Under the pieces are notes generated by a model. The model had not been told where the DNA came from, did not search any database, and saw only the letters and a program-made list of their open reading frames with translations. Of a DNA stretch of 20,050 nt, positions 1,634-9,404 are shown piece after piece (positions within the stretch are counted from its first letter, which is position 1; every line of letters starts with the position of its first letter). This DNA comes from an archaeon (GTDB lineage Archaea > Asgardarchaeota > Thorarchaeia > Thorarchaeales > Thorarchaeaceae): positions 1-20,050 of the forward strand of contig JAJRZD010000109.1 in the NCBI GenBank assembly GCA_024275415.1. Reading direction: 5' to 3'. A program made the translations under genes and the position numbers.

Positions 1634-4138
1634 CTATATGATAAAGGACGTTACAAACAACGAGTCAAGAATGCCTTCTCCTGCATAGAACACGACATAG
1701 TAGATTCCAGTCGTGGGGGCAAGCATCTGAAACGTCGTAGAACTCGAGGTGAACTGGAATTCGAGAACCACAGAGTGATTTGCCGCCAACATGTAACCGA
1801 ACACATCACCACCATAGACCTCCCCAGCAAAAGTATAGCCTCTCGTCGAATCAAGGAAGATATACCCTTGCAGGAAGCCCCCGAAGGGATTCCAGTATTG
1901 ATCATAGGGGGGGCCCCACAAGTCCCACGGGTCGTTCGGAATTATTGGATCTCCTGCATTCCAAGGAGTTTCATTCTGAGGGGTCACCGTCATGGTGATG
2001 TTGATTGCGGTTTCGTTGAGGTTTTCCTTGATGATTACAAGCTTTGTGACAGTTACAGGCCCTGCATCAGGGTCGAGTACATAGCCTCTCCATGTTTCGT
2101 TCACATACTCCACCCTAAAGGTATCATTTGAACCATCTGACCAGAACCGTATGATAGTGAAATTGAGATGCGTCCTGTTCCCGCCAGTCCAGTTAAGGAA
2201 TAGTGAGAAGGATGTGCTATTGTTGATGTAAATGACCTCATAGGCGGATTCCCCTGGGCCGAGTGATACCGTGTCGTTGAGTCCAGTCCCAGTGTATGTC
2301 ATATTCACTACTCGTTCATGATCAGGTATGATCCTCATGGTTATCTTTTCAGTATATCTTGATAGAACACCTTTTACAATCCAAATCCGGGCTATTCGCT
2401 TGGGGTTCTTAGGGTCAATGTGTATCTCACCGACGTGTGATGTTCGATTGATAGGAATCAAGATGGTTTCGTTTGTCCCATCCTCGTAGAATACAAGAAC
2501 TGAAGCCACCCATGTGTTATCTGCATGTGTATAGTTCAGCCGTATCGTGAAAGGTGATTCACCGTGCATCTCGATCTCCTCAATGATAGCTCCTCCACGG
2601 CCTCTCACAGCAGCAGTATCATTCAGCGGTGTGTCGGTATAGTTCATCCTCACATGTGGTTCAGTGTAGGACGGGACACCATTGGCACGGTTTGCATTCA
2701 AAATAAGCCATGACCAGAACCTGATAACGAGATCCGCAAGTGTCATGTTAAGGACTTGCCGTATTGCGTCCTCAGGAGATACATTGCGGGCGTCCCCGAA
2801 ACCATAGTATCTCGTGTGATTGAAAATCTGCAAGAGAGTGTTAAAACCATATGTCTCGTTCAGCCATTTCATGAAAAGATATGAGCCCATGTAGTCGTTC
2901 CATGTCCCGATCCATTCTCCGAACGGGCTGGACTCGTTCAGGTTCCGATAGTGGTCATGCCAGTTTAGACCACCAATCCGACTGGCCATATCCATCCAAG
3001 AATCCAATGTCATGTTCGGATAGTTCTTGAGCATGGACCACATTCCAAAGAATTCTGCCTGTCCCTCTATGAACCATCTGCTGGTGAACCAAATATGACG
3101 ATAGGTCGCATTGGTGCTATCGTTATATCTCTTGAATTGGAAAGTGTGCATGAGTTCGTGTTCTCCGACAAGCTTGAGCTCCTCCCGTGTCGCTCTCTGG
3201 CCAATCCGCAAGACAATGGTACCATTGCTGGATGTCGAGCCTGTCGTGTCGTTGGCACTAGAATTGACCACCCGAATTATAATCCGATTATTACTATCGG
3301 TTTGGGGAGTGCCAAACCCCAACTGACGATAGAGGTTGAGCGAGAAGTTGATGTGCTCATGGATCAGACCAATGACAGTCGCGTTGACTCCAGCACTGGC
3401 TGTGACATTGATGGTTTCACCCAATGCAGCGACATCATCGATTCCCTCGTACTGTAGATCATTGCGAGCACCATTGATAATCCATACCTCTTCTCCTCCG
3501 AACTTCCCAGAGGTAGAAAACGATGCTATGTTCGGCTCGCCAGCTGTTGCAGGAGTCTGCAACCACAGCCCTCTAGGAAAATCTTCTCGGAAGAAAGAGA
3601 TAGAACTGTCGATCCCCGGAAGCGCGATATTGATGTCATTGAGCAATGCAGTAGGGACATCATCACCATTCCCATTGTTGTAACGAACAAAGCTGACCAG
3701 ACTCCCGTTCGCGTCGTGAAGTCCTATCTCATCACCAGCAAGATCAAGAATGGATTCGTTCAGATGAGCGAAGATTGTTGCCTGCCCATCACCCAGATCC
3801 ACATCACTCGCCCCATTCCCAGTGATGATGCGTATGTACGAATTCGAGCGAAGTGATGTAATCTCAGGGATGTTGACCAGTTCTCCATCATATGTCGTCA
3901 GAGTCCAATTCTCCAGTGTCTGCGGAGCATTGTGGACAAATAGCTCAACGAACTCCTCAAGCACATCAGAAGATGGTTTGAATTCGTTTATGATAACATA
4001 TGTCTGTTCGTCTGAGTTGGTCAGATTCAGTTCGGGCTCTGATGGCTTCGGCTCAGGTAGCCCGATATAGAAGAAAACTGCGATTCCTGCACCAACAATT
4101 ATCAAGATTACGAGTGTGGCAGTGACTCCTTTGTTCAT
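1634..4138 (-). CDS. Membrane-anchored extracellular gluzincin-type metallopeptidase with N-terminal lamin-tail-like domain and repeated C-terminal beta domains
   Basis: N-terminal hydrophobic anchor (residues ~5-26); LTD-like VIINEFKP...EEFVELF; HELMH (3146-3160) followed by WFIEGQAEF, which supplies the third Zn ligand Glu; 36 N-x-S/T sequons by hand count. Confidence 0.85.
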   Translation of the reverse strand: MNKGVTATLVILIIVGAGIAVFFYIGLPEPKPSEPELNLTNSDEQTYVIINEFKPSSDVLEEFVELFVHNAPQTLENWTLTTYDGELVNIPEITSLRSNSYIRIITGNGASDVDLGDGQATIFAHLNESILDLAGDEIGLHDANGSLVSFVRYNNGNGDDVPTALLNDINIALPGIDSSISFFREDFPRGLWLQTPATAGEPNIASFSTSGKFGGEEVWIINGARNDLQYEGIDDVAALGETINVTASAGVNATVIGLIHEHINFSLNLYRQLGFGTPQTDSNNRIIIRVVNSSANDTTGSTSSNGTIVLRIGQRATREELKLVGEHELMHTFQFKRYNDSTNATYRHIWFTSRWFIEGQAEFFGMWSMLKNYPNMTLDSWMDMASRIGGLNWHDHYRNLNESSPFGEWIGTWNDYMGSYLFMKWLNETYGFNTLLQIFNHTRYYGFGDARNVSPEDAIRQVLNMTLADLVIRFWSWLILNANRANGVPSYTEPHVRMNYTDTPLNDTAAVRGRGGAIIEEIEMHGESPFTIRLNYTHADNTWVASVLVFYEDGTNETILIPINRTSHVGEIHIDPKNPKRIARIWIVKGVLSRYTEKITMRIIPDHERVVNMTYTGTGLNDTVSLGPGESAYEVIYINNSTSFSLFLNWTGGNRTHLNFTIIRFWSDGSNDTFRVEYVNETWRGYVLDPDAGPVTVTKLVIIKENLNETAINITMTVTPQNETPWNAGDPIIPNDPWDLWGPPYDQYWNPFGGFLQGYIFLDSTRGYTFAGEVYGGDVFGYMLAANHSVVLEFQFTSSSTTFQMLAPTTGIYYVVFYAGEGILDSLFVTSFII
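1966..2647 (-). repeat. Two tandem ~115-aa protein-level repeats inside the gluzincin
   Basis: Units start at 2647 (MNYTDTPLNDT) and 2302 (MTYTGTGLNDT), 345 nt apart. They share F..LN.T, F..DG.N.T, DP and ITM...P. Confidence 0.7.
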
Positions 4139-4316: not shown

Positions 4317-5432
4317 TCAGTGGACAATATTCGTACTTGAGCCACGATCAATAAGGCGTAGAGGTGTCAGAACCATCCACTCGAGATCTGTCTTCCATTC
4401 TTTTTTCGTTGTGTCGTAATTCTCTGGATAGAACCAATACAGCCTGCTATGACCTTTAACTGTGTCCATAGTAAAGACCTGAATTCCTTTCAGGTATCTC
4501 CAAAGCGTATAATAGAGGTGATGCTCTTGAGATGGTGGCATCCGGCCCCAAATGATCATAGAGCCGTTTTCAAGTAAATCAACTGAGAGGGGGAAGGGAG
4601 GCGCCTCATCGGAATAAAACGCATTGAACACCCTTGCACGATTATGAGAATCGGGACTGTCACAGTAGAACAGTTTTGTTGAGGTCACATCAAAGATTGA
4701 TCTGTCAATCTGAGCTCGTATGGATCGGATGTAATTCTCGTTTACAGCAATCATCTTTCGACTGGCGGTACTCTGTGAGATTGAGTATTTCTCTTGCAAT
4801 TCACTTTGAGAGATGTTGGCATTGGCCGTAAGTTCCTTCAGAATGTTCAAATCTATGCTATTGAGAGAGGGTGTTTGTATAGCGGGTTCTTGCTCACTTA
4901 ATTCAGCTGATGCCATGTCAATTGCTTGGGACCATGTTTTCCAGTCGTAATCCCAGCGAGATTCTTTTGCATCAAACCTCTCGATGTTGGTCACAGTAGA
5001 AGTTCGACAGCCTGTACTTCGCAAACCTGTGAATTCATCACAAACACCTCGTTCTTTCATGCCCTCTATGAATGCGTGAAGGTTCTGCTTTCCTTTCGGC
5101 GGGATGTCGAATTGAGTGAAAAGACCTGCGTAGGGGCCGTAGATTCTAGTACGATAGTGTGTGTATGGGTGAATATCACAGGCGGCCTCAAGAGAAACCA
5201 GTTGATTCTCCGAATCTGCTCGGAAGAGGATGATATGGCGCTCAAGACCCAGAGTTGCCGGTTCGAAAACAGCGATGGGATTTGAAAGTATCCCCTTTTG
5301 CTTGAGGCGCTCGATGTGTCTGTTTGCTGTTATCCAGCTGATGTTTACTCTCTTGGCAAGAGTCTGGATTGATATCGTGGGATTCAGTTCAATCATATGT
5401 AGTATTCTGACATCGACTTCAGCCAAATTCAT
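4317..5432 (-). CDS. Tandem (duplicated) Lrp/AsnC-family transcriptional regulator
   Basis: Two wHTH units (VDVRILHMIELNPTISIQTLAKRVNISWITANRHIERLKQKGIL; IDLNILKELTANANISQSELQEKYSISQSTASRKM), each followed by a RAM-like alpha/beta segment and an aromatic D/N...W motif. Confidence 0.8.
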   Translation of the reverse strand: MNLAEVDVRILHMIELNPTISIQTLAKRVNISWITANRHIERLKQKGILSNPIAVFEPATLGLERHIILFRADSENQLVSLEAACDIHPYTHYRTRIYGPYAGLFTQFDIPPKGKQNLHAFIEGMKERGVCDEFTGLRSTGCRTSTVTNIERFDAKESRWDYDWKTWSQAIDMASAELSEQEPAIQTPSLNSIDLNILKELTANANISQSELQEKYSISQSTASRKMIAVNENYIRSIRAQIDRSIFDVTSTKLFYCDSPDSHNRARVFNAFYSDEAPPFPLSVDLLENGSMIIWGRMPPSQEHHLYYTLWRYLKGIQVFTMDTVKGHSRLYWFYPENYDTTKKEWKTDLEWMVLTPLRLIDRGSSTNIVH

Positions 5433-5510: not shown

Positions 5511-6005
5511 TTATTCTGTCACTACCAGCACCCCTGCAGGATCAGCATCTCCAGAGCCACCAGGAGGATCAAAGACATATGAGGCAGTGCCGGAAACAAC
5601 TCCTCCAATATAGGAAACCACTTGAACCGAGAAGATGTAGTCCCCAGATTCTAAGGCATGGTTATAAAAATACATAGTGCAATGGACAATACTAAGGCGC
5701 GTGTTGATGACATAGGCATAGGTATATTCTGAACCTGAAGGAAGGGTTAGAGAGGGATAGACATCAATATTATATCGTGCATTTCCCTCGAAAGAAAGGT
5801 CAAAGTATGCTATCACATCATCCTCATTGCCATCACCGTCCGCATCCGTGTAGTAGGCATCAAGTATTTGAACCTTGATAGTAACCTGGTCGTTTGTGCT
5901 CTGAACAGTTACTGTGGATGCAGTTACAACGGGAAGTGCAGATATTGATCCCACCATCATGACGAAAGTCAGTAGTGCCCCGATTGCGAAAGTACGAGTT
6001 CTCAT
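5511..6005 (-). CDS. Secreted ~164-aa beta-rich protein with a DxDxDG Ca-binding-like loop
   Basis: Signal peptide MRTRTFAIGALLTFVMMVGSISA; motif DADGDGNEDD. ATG 6005 is preferred over TTG 6014 because GAGGGTTGA precedes it. Confidence 0.8.
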   Translation of the reverse strand: MRTRTFAIGALLTFVMMVGSISALPVVTASTVTVQSTNDQVTIKVQILDAYYTDADGDGNEDDVIAYFDLSFEGNARYNIDVYPSLTLPSGSEYTYAYVINTRLSIVHCTMYFYNHALESGDYIFSVQVVSYIGGVVSGTASYVFDPPGGSGDADPAGVLVVTE

Positions 6006-6880: not shown

Positions 6881-8194
6881 TTACACAACATACGAGTCTG
6901 TCGTTTCTATATTCAGACTCGAGTCATAGATCCAGTTTGTCTTTACAACATCGATGACTGAAACAGTATGTGTTCCTGCTGCAACATCTTGCTGAAGGAA
7001 TCTTGCGATCCCGTTCGAGTCGGTCAAAACAGTCAAAGTGACAATGGTACCATCAGGATGTGCCCACTCAATCTCTACCTCTGCATCGATGACGGGATTC
7101 CCTGCTGTATCATGGATAGTAACAAAACACTCAAGGTCAGTCCTAGGACTTCTACCATGGATGATGGTTTCATCCCATGCTATGTCGTAAACATACATAG
7201 TGTTCGAGGTATCACCACCGCCACCACTTCCAGTGTCGGTCACGCCAGCCGTGGTAGATGCCTGATATATCATCTTCGCGATGGAGTGTGCTCCTAGTTG
7301 CATCATTTCGACATTCCAAGAGTAAAGAAGGTCGGTCGTACCTTCAACTTCAATCCCATGATGAGTTGTGGTGATTGCATTGGTAAAGCCATAAACGATC
7401 TCCTCAAGAACCTCCTGATAGTGATCCCCCACATTTTGCCCCTCATATCCCACAGCCCTTCCACTCCTGTCAGACCCCATGTTTGCGTACTGCGCGACCC
7501 ACAGTGCTTCATCGTGAGCAGTCCCATTCATGAGATTATCTGTCACATCAGGACGAATCGCATCGAAGTCATATTCATAAGCTTCTACTGCCCTAGTCGT
7601 TGCCTTCTCATGACAGCTATGGTAGCTCATCCTGTACGTGTAGGTTCCAATTCTGCCGGTATATTCCTCATGCTCCTTCCCAGAATCTGTGGCATCATCA
7701 TCGGTATGCATCGGATTGCTGATGTCCGAGAGATAATGGACAAGCAGTCCCATAGATTTCCGAGCGTCAGACGCATATTGTGATCCTGCAGGCTGACCAG
7801 CGTCCACCCACAAAGTCAGGTTTCCTACGACCCAGTCATAGCACCTCTGAATGGCATCTGGTGCGCCTCGGTCAGGCAGCCCGCCACGATAGCCATAATC
7901 CCCAAAATCATAGTTGTGATTGGCCCAGTCCTCATATACCATATCTGGAACCTCAGTCCAGTAGTAGTATTCGGAGAGATCCTCTTCCAGCCATGTCACT
8001 AGCTCGGGATAGCTGCTTTTCACATATACCATCCCATACTTGGCAAATTGGTCGTGTGTCCCGTAGTCGGGATCGTTCTCGTTGGTGCTGGCGCCTCCAT
8101 TACTCCATGCAACTGCGTGGTTGGTATTGACAAGTATCACAAGCAATAACAGCGAAAAAACTACCAGCAATGTTCTTTGTTTGATCAATATCAC
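6881..8194 (-). CDS. Secreted Zn-dependent phospholipase C / S1-P1 nuclease superfamily enzyme with C-terminal Ig-like domain
   Basis: Signal peptide ends AVA|WSNGG (mature Trp1). Tri-zinc ligand pattern: THD, PD, NH, HYLSDISNPMHT, HSCHE. Gly/Thr linker, then GNPVIDAEV...TDSNGIARF domain. GGAGGT SD 8 nt before GTG. Confidence 0.85.
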   Translation of the reverse strand: MILIKQRTLLVVFSLLLLVILVNTNHAVAWSNGGASTNENDPDYGTHDQFAKYGMVYVKSSYPELVTWLEEDLSEYYYWTEVPDMVYEDWANHNYDFGDYGYRGGLPDRGAPDAIQRCYDWVVGNLTLWVDAGQPAGSQYASDARKSMGLLVHYLSDISNPMHTDDDATDSGKEHEEYTGRIGTYTYRMSYHSCHEKATTRAVEAYEYDFDAIRPDVTDNLMNGTAHDEALWVAQYANMGSDRSGRAVGYEGQNVGDHYQEVLEEIVYGFTNAITTTHHGIEVEGTTDLLYSWNVEMMQLGAHSIAKMIYQASTTAGVTDTGSGGGGDTSNTMYVYDIAWDETIIHGRSPRTDLECFVTIHDTAGNPVIDAEVEIEWAHPDGTIVTLTVLTDSNGIARFLQQDVAAGTHTVSVIDVVKTNWIYDSSLNIETTDSYVV

Positions 8195-8233
8195 CTTCCT
8201 GTACCTCCGTCAGAGAGCAATGTCATTATATGA

Positions 8234-8279
8234 TGGGTGTAATATGAACTTTTTTACTAATAGTTATATATTACACCCA
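8234..8279. promoter_or_regulatory. Perfect 12-bp inverted repeat in the divergent PLC/subtilisin promoter; candidate operator
   Basis: TGGGTGTAATAT (8234-8245), 22-nt AT-rich spacer, ATATTACACCCA (8268-8279). Inner AACT/AGTT arms are also complementary. Confidence 0.6.
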
Positions 8280-8363
8280 ACACTTATTAGTAGGTGTGGG
8301 GTCTGTCGAGCATCTTGTAATGGAACCATGCGGGTACCATTCACGAGAGAGGTGTGTAAAAAC

Positions 8364-9404
8364 TTGAAGACGAAAGCACTGGCCGGAATGGTGCTACTCT
8401 TTCTGGCTATTAGCATCCTACCCCTAGCATCAAACGCCTTTGTGGTGGTTGATGAGGGATTCACCTTGTATCCTGGACCGCCCTCTTGGCTAGGTGGCGG
8501 AGACGATACAACATATCCATGGCAGGATGATGATCCTGAAACACCATGGGGTATTGAGCGTGTGTTCAATGGAAACTATGACGGAGATCAATTTACGACT
8601 TCTGTGCAGGTTGCAATCCTAGATTCGGGCATTGACCTAGATCATCCAGACTTGGCTCCTAACATTGCTTGGGCAGTCGATGCGACTGGAGGAGGCAACC
8701 CAAATGATTTGAATGGCCACGGAACACATGTTGCGGGTACAATTGGTGCTATTCGCGATAGTGCTGGCGTTGTTGGAATGTATGCCAATGTGGAACTATA
8801 TGCCATCAAGGTTCTAGGTGCAAGTGGAAGCGGTGACTGGGCAGACTTGGTTACTGCAATATACCTAGCTTGTCAAGGGCCAGATGGAATTGAAGGGAAC
8901 GAAGATGATGCTGATGTCATTAGCATGAGCCTTGGTGCTTCTTCAGCCCCAACAGAGGTTCATGATGCAATCATCCATGCCTACAACCTTGGCATTGTGC
9001 TTGTTGCAGCTGCTGGCAATGAAGGTGACGGAGATCCATCAACCGAGGAGATTTCGTATCCAGCCTATTATCCAGAGGTCATTGCTGTAGGTGCGACTGA
9101 CAAGGATGATTCGATAGCCTCCTTCTCGAACACTGGCTCATATCTTGAGGTTGCTGCGCCTGGTGTATCAGTGTACAGCACATACAAGAATGGTGGTTAC
9201 GACACTTTGTCAGGCACTTCCATGGCGTGTCCTCATGTTTCCGGGTTAGTGGCACTCATCATTGCAATCAATGGTAAGATGCCAGTTGGAACCTTTGATG
9301 ACACGAGTACCAGCACGATTCGAGGATACCTACATAGTACTGCACTCGATCTGGGTCCGGCAGGCTGGGATACAGCCTACGGATGGGGATTGATCCAGCG
9401 GTAG
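8364..9404 (+). CDS. Secreted S8 subtilisin, Tk-subtilisin/pernisine-like, apparently without an I9 propeptide
   Basis: GAGGTG SD (8349-8354) before TTG 8364; signal peptide MKTKALAGMVLLFLAISILPLASNA; catalytic ILDSGID, NGHGTHVAG, AAAGNEG, SGTSMACPHV. Confidence 0.92.
   Translation: MKTKALAGMVLLFLAISILPLASNAFVVVDEGFTLYPGPPSWLGGGDDTTYPWQDDDPETPWGIERVFNGNYDGDQFTTSVQVAILDSGIDLDHPDLAPNIAWAVDATGGGNPNDLNGHGTHVAGTIGAIRDSAGVVGMYANVELYAIKVLGASGSGDWADLVTAIYLACQGPDGIEGNEDDADVISMSLGASSAPTEVHDAIIHAYNLGIVLVAAAGNEGDGDPSTEEISYPAYYPEVIAVGATDKDDSIASFSNTGSYLEVAAPGVSVYSTYKNGGYDTLSGTSMACPHVSGLVALIIAINGKMPVGTFDDTSTSTIRGYLHSTALDLGPAGWDTAYGWGLIQR

Follow-up and report, generated by a model that had tools for sequence, protein, structure and literature searches.

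The window analyzed here, a stretch of 20,050 nt corresponding to positions 1-20,050 of the forward strand of contig JAJRZD010000109.1 (assembly GCA_024275415.1), originates from a member of the Thorarchaeaceae (Asgardarchaeota). At 8364-9404 on the forward strand, it carries a gene for a subtilisin-like protease related to Tk-subtilisin from Thermococcus kodakarensis. The frame is free of stop codons and its direct translation yields 346 amino acids (aa). An initial annotation had described the product as a secreted Tk-subtilisin-like protease with no propeptide and a deleted Ca-folding loop; the strings and coordinates it quoted for the gene are all present in the sequence or its translation. 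The features of the gene, with the evidence for each, are the following:

8349..8354, + strand: Shine-Dalgarno-like GAGGTG, 9 nt ahead of the TTG (AGGTG or AGGAG at the same distance in nine of nine Thor-type orthologues).
8364..9404, + strand: coding sequence of the propeptide-deficient, Tk-subtilisin-like S8A protease, TTG start, 346 aa (Pfam, phmmer, orthologue starts, Shine-Dalgarno-like motif, AlphaFold2 mean pLDDT of 93.4).
8364..8438, + strand: predicted Sec signal peptide, residues 1-25 (K2/K4, hydrophobic core, SNA before F26), or possibly an uncleaved signal anchor (sequence; cleavage site predicted).
8439..8477, + strand: putative residual propeptide tail FVVVDEGFTLYPG, residues 26-38, with F33-T-L-Y36 (8460-8471) predicted at P4-P1 (MAFFT, hhalign and VIA-align of the model).
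8478..8543, + strand: IS1-like N-terminal segment PPSWLGGGDDTTYPWQDDDPET, residues 39-60, acidic, with TTY.WQD.DPET highly conserved in the clade (alignments; ratio of nonsynonymous to synonymous substitution rates, dN/dS, of ~0.12 over residues 26-60).
8622..8624, + strand: catalytic Asp87 (AILDSG; invariant alignment column).
8718..8720, + strand: catalytic His119 (NGHGTH; invariant alignment column).
8877..8912, + strand: short acidic loop GPDGIEGNEDDA, residues 172-183, where Tk-subtilisin has a 23-residue four-Ca IS2 loop (alignments).
9018..9020, + strand: oxyanion-hole Asn219 (AAGNEG; invariant alignment column).
9219..9221, + strand: catalytic Ser286 (SGTSMA; near-invariant column, the lone exception being the crystallized S324A mutant of Tk-subtilisin).

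The sole Pfam domain of the protease is PF00082 (Peptidase_S8), which covers residues 80-342 (E 1.2e-57; 195.9 bits vs. a cut-off of 21.8). The Asp-His-Ser triad is found in order, along with the oxyanion Asn, in conserved motifs, and the predicted fold matches subtilisins with Z scores of 42-49, in agreement with membership in S8A. When phmmer was run against the Protein Data Bank (PDB), Tk-subtilisin entries were by far the best solved relatives (E 2e-82), bacterial subtilisins coming next at ~1e-52, and the catalytic domain is 52-54% identical to that of Tk-subtilisin. The alignment with the Pro-Tk-subtilisin precursor starts at Y36 of the query, opposite Tk L68 (the mature chain starting two residues later, at G70), and extends to the C-terminus. 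The Tk-subtilisin features listed in the initial annotation (propeptide, mature start, Ca loop and C-terminus) were confirmed against PDB sequences.

The resemblance to Tk-subtilisin (PDB 2E1P, 2Z2X, 2ZWP and others) extends to the three-dimensional level, with Z scores of 45-49 and a root-mean-square deviation (rmsd) of 1.7 A to the AlphaFold2 model of the protease. Both enzymes share the IS1-type extension PSWLGGG...PWGIERV, the GPDG...DDA anchors, the PVGTFDD...GWD..YG region and the length of the site-A Ca loop. In the window protein, PPSWLGGG...PWGIERV follows F26-G38, and PVGTFDD...GWDTAYG and a C-terminal GLIQR are also present; its IS1 (PPSWLGGG) is four residues longer and its IS3 (PVGTFDD) five residues shorter than in Tk-subtilisin. 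Unlike Tk-subtilisin, which has a globular 69-residue propeptide, the protease keeps just the last ~8-11 of these residues. It also has a 6-residue deletion after the ATG strand and a 5-residue acidic insertion (GDGDPSTEE), lacks the C-terminal ~10 residues, and comes from sediment Asgard archaea rather than from a hyperthermophile. At its N-terminus, the protein is basic and then hydrophobic with an SNA motif, a type of N-terminus found in every Asgard orthologue. We infer a functional, Sec-exported subtilisin of the Tk-subtilisin lineage, probably with a cleaved signal peptide.

The position of the start codon is critical for the length of the N-terminus. The codon homologous to 8364 opens nine Thorarchaeota-type orthologues (MK.K...), and AGGTG or AGGAG precedes the start of each by 7-10 nt. 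An automated call had selected the in-frame ATG at 8328 (P0002, 358 aa), which adds only 12 residues and extends the basic region before the hydrophobic core. Upstream of 8328 there is no space for a prodomain, because the frame there overlaps a divergent gene (6881-8194, - strand), the spacer between this gene and the protease being 169 nt long. A longer in-frame extension (a 440-aa open reading frame from 8082) was rejected; it overlaps the divergent gene and is devoid of homology. Although the Shine-Dalgarno-like motif is good and conserved, the protease starts with TTG or GTG in eight of nine close genes, including that of the window (loci L013-L020 compared). Such a start may be a conserved weak one, limiting translation of a protease deprived of a full inhibitor domain.

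As a consequence of this start, only 13 residues (F26-G38) separate the predicted signal peptide from the sequence equivalent to mature Tk-subtilisin (G70 equivalent), where the Tk-subtilisin propeptide (Tkpro) has ~69 residues. This short N-terminus is a feature of a clade. In a search of 5.8 billion proteins, ~33 Asgard cluster representatives were retrieved at 57-84% identity (336-361 aa), all with a short N-terminus; those that are named come from Thorarchaeota, Heimdallarchaeaceae and Hodarchaeales metagenome-assembled genomes. Their layout consists of a signal-peptide-like N-terminus, followed by 10-25 residues and then by ...TTY.W.D.DPETPWGIER. Genome-contig loci show the same architecture in more than 20 assemblies of independent origin, among them the closed genomes of Candidatus Heimdallarchaeum aukensis and H. 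endolithica. By contrast with these Asgard proteins, homologues from Thermococcus, Palaeococcus, Pyrolobus, Aeropyrum and Ferroglobus (Thermococcales, Desulfurococcales and Archaeoglobales) are 413-441 aa long and contain the ~70-residue propeptide.

In a maximum-likelihood tree of 83 catalytic domains, obtained by a quick search and with a non-monophyletic outgroup, the short-N Asgard proteins all fall inside one clade of 33 rows (Shimodaira-Hasegawa-like approximate likelihood-ratio test, SH-aLRT, 99) whose sister is the propeptide-bearing Tk clade. No I9-like region was found in any member of the 33-row clade, which holds the window protein. When Thor-type orthologues are compared in pairs, the whole gene gives a dN/dS of ~0.05, residues 26-60 one of ~0.12 and the signal peptide one of ~0.27; these values are rough because synonymous sites are mostly saturated and only three whole-gene pairs have dS < 3. 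Purifying selection thus acts on an intact and conserved protease gene. The initial annotation had foreseen that a full prodomain in orthologues or a decaying pseudogene would overturn its reading, and had proposed to check orthologues for the short N-terminus. Neither an assembly deletion nor a pseudogene is compatible with the ~33 Asgard representatives that share this N-terminus, nor with the low dN/dS and the intact catalytic residues. Its description of an intact exported subtilase holds for the orthologues as well: a globular chaperone domain of the I9 type is absent, and so is the portion of the Tk loop with DxDxDG.

Whether a prodomain is encoded elsewhere was investigated in the genome of the window (3.5 Mb, 92.9% complete). 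As the initial annotation had expected, PF05922 matched neither the protease nor any other part of the genome, but this silence is uninformative because Tkpro itself scores just E 0.06 with PF05922, below the cut-off. The absence of a prodomain in cis hence follows from the small number of residues available and not from hidden Markov models. A dedicated Tkpro profile, built from 18 propeptides, found no match in the protease gene and no stand-alone copy in this 92.9%-complete genome. Its sole match lies in cis in another S8 paralogue (C1:7034-7144, E 0.003), directly upstream of the catalytic domain, and its detection indicates that the search is sensitive enough for such regions. In this genome, six S8 paralogues have pro-like regions. 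Two more S8 paralogues are devoid of a propeptide and membrane-anchored (C116:55281-59003, locus L004, and C8:26884-30609, locus L007; 666 and 684 aa), with an N-terminal transmembrane helix followed by at most 12 residues before the catalytic Asp strand. Given these paralogues and the forms of the clade, propeptide-less subtilases are less rare in these archaea than textbooks suggest.

The 13 residues that follow the predicted signal peptide resemble the end of Tkpro. MAFFT pairs V29-D-E-G-F-T-L-Y36 with Tkpro F62-D-H-Q-A-V-L-L69, and the tail pattern [FP]-x-[LIA]-[YLMW]-[APVK]-G-P-P is kept across orthologues, a pattern which fits the P4 and P1 preference of subtilisins. With VIA-align, the best structural matches of the model are unautoprocessed Pro-Tk-subtilisin structures. 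Chain 2zwp_B is matched with a Z score of 48.7 and an rmsd of 1.7 A over 296 aligned residues (model 29-346 to chain 62-389), while mature Tk-subtilisin 2z2x gives a Z score of 45.4 and the same rmsd of 1.7 A over 283 residues (model 57-346 to chain 83-389); with the zymogen, 12-13 additional N-terminal residues are aligned (model 29 = chain 62). The model, which contains a short strand at residues 33-35, places the post-signal segment along the path of the zymogen's propeptide tail through the active-site cleft, with Y36 at P1 and F33 at P4. Overall, there is moderate evidence that the tail could be a vestigial, substrate-like mini-propeptide. The claim of a protein with no propeptide is thus valid for the globular chaperone domain but not for the whole propeptide, since the last ~11 residues align with the Tkpro end; the mini-propeptide, which the initial annotation had listed as an alternative, gains support from this alignment and from the superposition of these residues on the Tkpro tail in the model.

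The second peculiarity of the protease is its acidic loop. The phmmer alignment places the query GPDGIEGNEDDADV opposite Tk GPDGVADKDGDGIIAGDPDDDAAEV; the loop is 11 residues shorter than the Tk IS2 loop and lacks DKDGDG. The length of the stretch equivalent to query residues 170-188 was measured in the 226 relatives aligned across it, and distributes as follows between proteins with a long and a short N-terminus:

19-residue stretch (as in the window protein): 43 with a long N-terminus, 54 with a short one.
30-residue stretch (Tk type): 75 with a long N-terminus, 0 with a short one.
10-residue stretch (bacterial type): 54 with a long N-terminus, 4 with a short one.

Nearly all of the 19-residue stretches listed read GPDGxxGTxDDA[DE]VISM, and the long-N proteins which contain one are 389-1557 aa long. 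In the tree, the 30-residue forms sampled constitute one separate hyperthermophile clade (SH-aLRT 99), whereas the 19-residue forms are spread over the Asgard clade, the lineages next to it and several deeper branches. The economical reading is that the 12-residue GPDGxxG[TN]xDDA loop would be the ordinary state of a wide subfamily in which long N-termini predominate, the Tk loop (IS2) being an extension acquired in the hyperthermophile clade. Rather than deleted, as initially annotated, the loop is better described as never extended, since 97 relatives have a loop of equal length and the Tk length is confined to one clade.

Considering these data as a whole, we regard it as fairly probable that the window encodes an exported subtilisin of the Tk lineage which lost its globular propeptide in the Asgard clade, folds independently of a chaperone, retains a substrate-like tail and is under the control of an Lrp-like regulator. 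According to this proposal, the clade would have lost ~58 residues of the ancestral propeptide, corresponding to its globular, I9-like part. The signal peptide would now be joined to the remaining ~11 residues from the propeptide's end, after which comes the IS1-like segment at the N-terminus of the mature enzyme. Once exported, the catalytic domain would fold without an intramolecular chaperone, as reported for mature Tk-subtilisin, probably with the help of Ca2+ bound at the retained site-A loop and at the acidic segments TTYPWQDDDPET, GPDGxxGTxDDA and EGDGDPSTEE. With F33-T-L-Y36 occupying S4-S1 like the Tkpro tail in the zymogen, the tail would act as a minimal autoinhibitory first substrate, clipped or displaced, and not as a foldase. 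Finally, the neighbouring regulator, which contains two Lrp-like winged helix-turn-helix (wHTH) domains, would probably set expression, in what may be an amino-acid-responsive extracellular proteolysis unit. Tk-subtilisin, whose folding needs Ca2+ but not the propeptide, is a precedent for such a mechanism, and its four-Ca loop is required for folding (PMC3123361).

Several points weigh against this proposal. The folding precedent of Tk-subtilisin may not transfer to the window protein because the latter lacks half of the loop that Tk-subtilisin requires for folding. Likewise, the polarity of the loop stays unproven owing to the quick search and the non-monophyletic outgroup of the tree. Regarding the tail, hhalign with the 18-member Tkpro profile recovers the same register with an E of 0.15, which is not significant alone, and the pLDDT is 64-77 over residues 21-40, corresponding to moderate confidence. 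Its placement by AlphaFold may echo the Pro-Tk-subtilisin structures used in training. Cleavage after Y36 is doubtful, as the next residue, P37, would have to occupy P1', a position at which subtilisins accept Pro poorly. The tail is not universally kept either, since a subclade of the P0019/P0024/P0029 type is entirely devoid of the GPPSW segment. More generally, for every member of the clade, enzymatic activity, cleavage of the signal peptide, the position of the mature N-terminus and Ca dependence are predicted features.

The regulator belongs to a two-gene cassette located on the other side of the divergent gene. The corresponding features, along with a repeat in the promoter region of the protease, are:

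4317..5432, - strand: Lrp-like regulator of 371 aa with two winged helices of the AsnC/HTH_24 type, its gene directly following that of the small protein (Pfam, synteny).
5511..6005, - strand: small secreted protein, 164 aa from its ATG, with a signal peptide and an Ig-like beta-sandwich with DADGDG (Dx[DN]xDG); candidate accessory factor (sequence, model, synteny).
8231..8282, no strand assigned: 15-nt inverted repeat (8231-8245 / 8268-8282), 93% complementary, with a 22-nt spacer; candidate operator, the repeat being found in the promoter region shared with the divergent gene and its function being predicted.

Both cassette genes accompany the protease in 13 of 13 loci whose upstream DNA is long enough, which range from Thor to Heimdallarchaeum. 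In these loci, the small-protein homologue is encoded 0.2-2.5 kb upstream of the protease gene, also in Heimdallarchaeum, where identity drops to ~28%. Judged by its sequence, the inverted repeat could serve as an operator for the Lrp-like regulator.

This conserved neighbour raises the possibility that propeptide function is supplied in trans, the small protein, which is predicted to bind Ca, serving as an external chaperone and/or temporary inhibitor. The initial annotation had invoked a trans-acting factor and, in this respect, a concrete candidate exists. A precedent is provided by the Aeromonas sobria protease ASP, a secreted subtilase devoid of a propeptide, for which an adjacent small-protein gene, ORF2, is needed for production and folding (PMC9549277; also, as far as the titles it cites indicate, PMC5638518). 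As in this system, a small exported protein is conserved beside the protease gene; it shares export with the protease and contains a conserved DADGDG...DD motif. Its family, which matches no Pfam family and has homologues in Asgard archaea only, is present in 58 of the 201 genomes sampled in the phylum, with one to nine copies each and five in the genome of the window. Flanks of up to ~8.5 kb per side were examined for 46 copies of the gene. An S8 gene is located within ~6 kb in 25 of them, vs. ~3% expected by chance (a rough estimate, based on ~13 S8 genes in 3.5 Mb), and 21 copies have a peptidase gene immediately upstream: S8 in 12, C14 (caspase-like) in 7, M29 in 1 and PrsW in 1. The cassette is therefore clearly peptidase-associated.

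The distribution of the cassette nevertheless speaks against a dedicated stand-in for the propeptide. The small gene is most tightly linked not with a protease but with the Lrp-like double-wHTH gene, which adjoins it in 45 of 46 copies, mostly at less than 100 bp and on the same strand, and 21 copies have no S8 in the sampled flanks. Its partners include an S8 at C73 (622 aa) with a ~70-residue pro-like N-region, a Big_7-fronted S8 at C121, a caspase-like secreted peptidase at C80 and an M29 aminopeptidase without a signal peptide; the label "pro-like" for C73 refers to length and pattern only, hhalign with the Tkpro profile giving a propeptide-like register at E 0.13. Occurring beside pro-like S8s and caspase-like peptidases too, the cassette is specific neither to propeptide-less subtilisins nor to serine proteases. 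ASP itself differs from the window protein in being a bacterial kexin-like S8B enzyme, and the Asgard neighbour, in contrast with ORF2, is linked foremost to a regulator gene and found beside non-S8 peptidases. ORF2 is said, in work by Kobayashi from 2015, to mimic the propeptide, an alpha/beta fold, whereas the Asgard protein is predicted to be an all-beta, Ig-like and Ca-binding protein (model pLDDT 83.7). Its fold matches are generic Ig/FN3-like sandwiches, the best at a Z score of 10.8 with many unrelated proteins at 8-10. Foldseek returned nothing at E <= 0.001, and a look-up in the ESM Atlas gave archaeal clusters only, without names. The B. subtilis intracellular proteinase inhibitor 3isy (E 6e-3; VIA Z score 8.4, rank 35), tried as a functional lead, was dropped, being no better than unrelated Ig-like sandwiches. 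A complex prediction between protease residues 26-346 and small-protein residues 31-164, run without controls, scored 0.00 and speaks neither for nor against binding. Overall, we consider supply in trans unlikely, and the cassette looks like a regulatory or accessory unit and not like a propeptide surrogate.

A broader idea is that the cassette is a new type of system controlling extracellular proteolysis, where the small protein, as external chaperone or inhibitor or as a bait substrate feeding the regulator, would have permitted the loss of the cis-propeptide in the clade; this we deem rather improbable. The cassette is also found at C73, C121, C1 and C80 of the window's own genome (loci L112, L009, L113 and L114) and at loci L072-L111, with regulators of 360-410 aa.

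Alternatively, the hydrophobic N-terminus could be an uncleaved signal anchor, making the enzyme a membrane-tethered surface protease with its catalytic domain ~12 residues from the membrane and with tethering in place of zymogen control. The hydrophobic stretch ALAGMVLLFLAISILPLA is indeed long (~18 residues), AlphaFold2 predicts a single helix over residues 2-25, and the L004 and L007 paralogues combine an N-terminal transmembrane helix with the lack of a pro-region. The AXA-like SNA motif and the helix-breaking Pro (L19-P20-L21) before F26 are, however, as in cleaved archaeal Sec signals, with TNA, TYA, AFA and SSA in orthologues, and the residues after the motif look like a propeptide tail, not like a spacer; a retained anchor is thus rather unlikely. 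Lastly, an assembly deletion, a mis-called start or an inactive pseudogene, which the TTG codon and the automated choice of the upstream ATG might suggest, is highly improbable in view of the independent assemblies and closed genomes with the same architecture, the start position and Shine-Dalgarno-like motif conserved in nine of nine close orthologues, the upstream frame entering the divergent gene, the dN/dS of ~0.05 and the intact catalytic residues.

Another group of exported subtilases is formed by the mycosins (MycP) of mycobacterial type VII secretion, which, according to work attributed to Solomonson and to Wagner (both 2013), are devoid of a cleaved chaperone prodomain and have a retained N-extension wrapping the catalytic domain. 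Unlike the window protein, mycosins are distant S8 enzymes with a C-terminal membrane anchor and are part of a secretion machine, and they show no sequence kinship with its N-segment. Close in structure to the window protein are the Bacillus intracellular subtilisin proteases (ISPs, of the ISP1/IspA type; 2xrm, Z score 42.4), which likewise lack a chaperone prodomain and have a short zymogen-type N-extension. The pro-segment of ISP1 is small and barely affects the folding landscape, the enzyme being thermodynamically stable without it (PMC11419036). ISPs differ from the window protein, for which a signal peptide is predicted, in being cytoplasmic and without a signal peptide; their N-extension and insertion are unrelated in sequence to its tail, and their sequence scores are E 3e-51 to 3e-54 vs. 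2e-82 for Tk-subtilisin.

Secreted subtilases without a prodomain are regarded as rare exceptions (PMC9549277). By this textbook standard, the initial statement that the protein would be unusual among secreted S8A enzymes is true, but it is overstated with regard to Tk-subtilisin folding, ASP, the ISPs and the two membrane-anchored paralogues. The conserved Asgard clade is real, while propeptide-less subtilisins are already known as a category; no publication dealing with the clade came up in a literature search on Asgard subtilisins and enzymes deficient in a propeptide. Its value lies in the fact that subtilisins are textbook chaperone-dependent folders, whereas the clade comprises more than 30 secreted enzymes, ~52% identical to Tk-subtilisin (the archaeal subtilisin studied in most detail), that are devoid of the chaperone domain and of half of the Tk Ca loop, yet equipped with a substrate-like stub. 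Comparing them with Tk-subtilisin could reveal changes which lower the folding barrier, useful for engineering proteases expressed without a pro-region. The clade also adds to the picture of peptide acquisition by sediment Asgard archaea, with a recurrent regulator cassette beside secreted peptidases, and is an entry point to this undescribed peptidase-associated cassette.

Other neighbours of the protease are also exported proteins. The divergent gene (6881-8194, - strand) codes for an exported protein of 437 aa, for which S1-P1 nuclease / PLC-like and Big_1 are weak matches. Only in Thor-type genomes does this gene separate the cassette from the protease, and its orientation varies (L013, L014 and L016 vs. 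the window). Downstream of the Lrp-like regulator gene, 1634-4138 (- strand) encodes an exported protein of 834 aa that contains a Lamin Tail Domain and weakly matches DUF6055; homologues of this protein are syntenic in several Thor loci (L013, L016 and L018).

The 33-row clade contains further N-terminal architectures. Some forms are without a signal peptide and have a K/E-rich helical N-terminus (P0036, P0037 and P0040). Secreted S8 proteins of the same clade (P0148, P0150, P0153, P0174 and P0038) carry 100-300 residues of tandem aromatic pentapeptides (PYWSF, PFWSM, PYWSV, PSYAF and PFYTF), followed, in the propeptide's place, by a Lys-rich helical linker.

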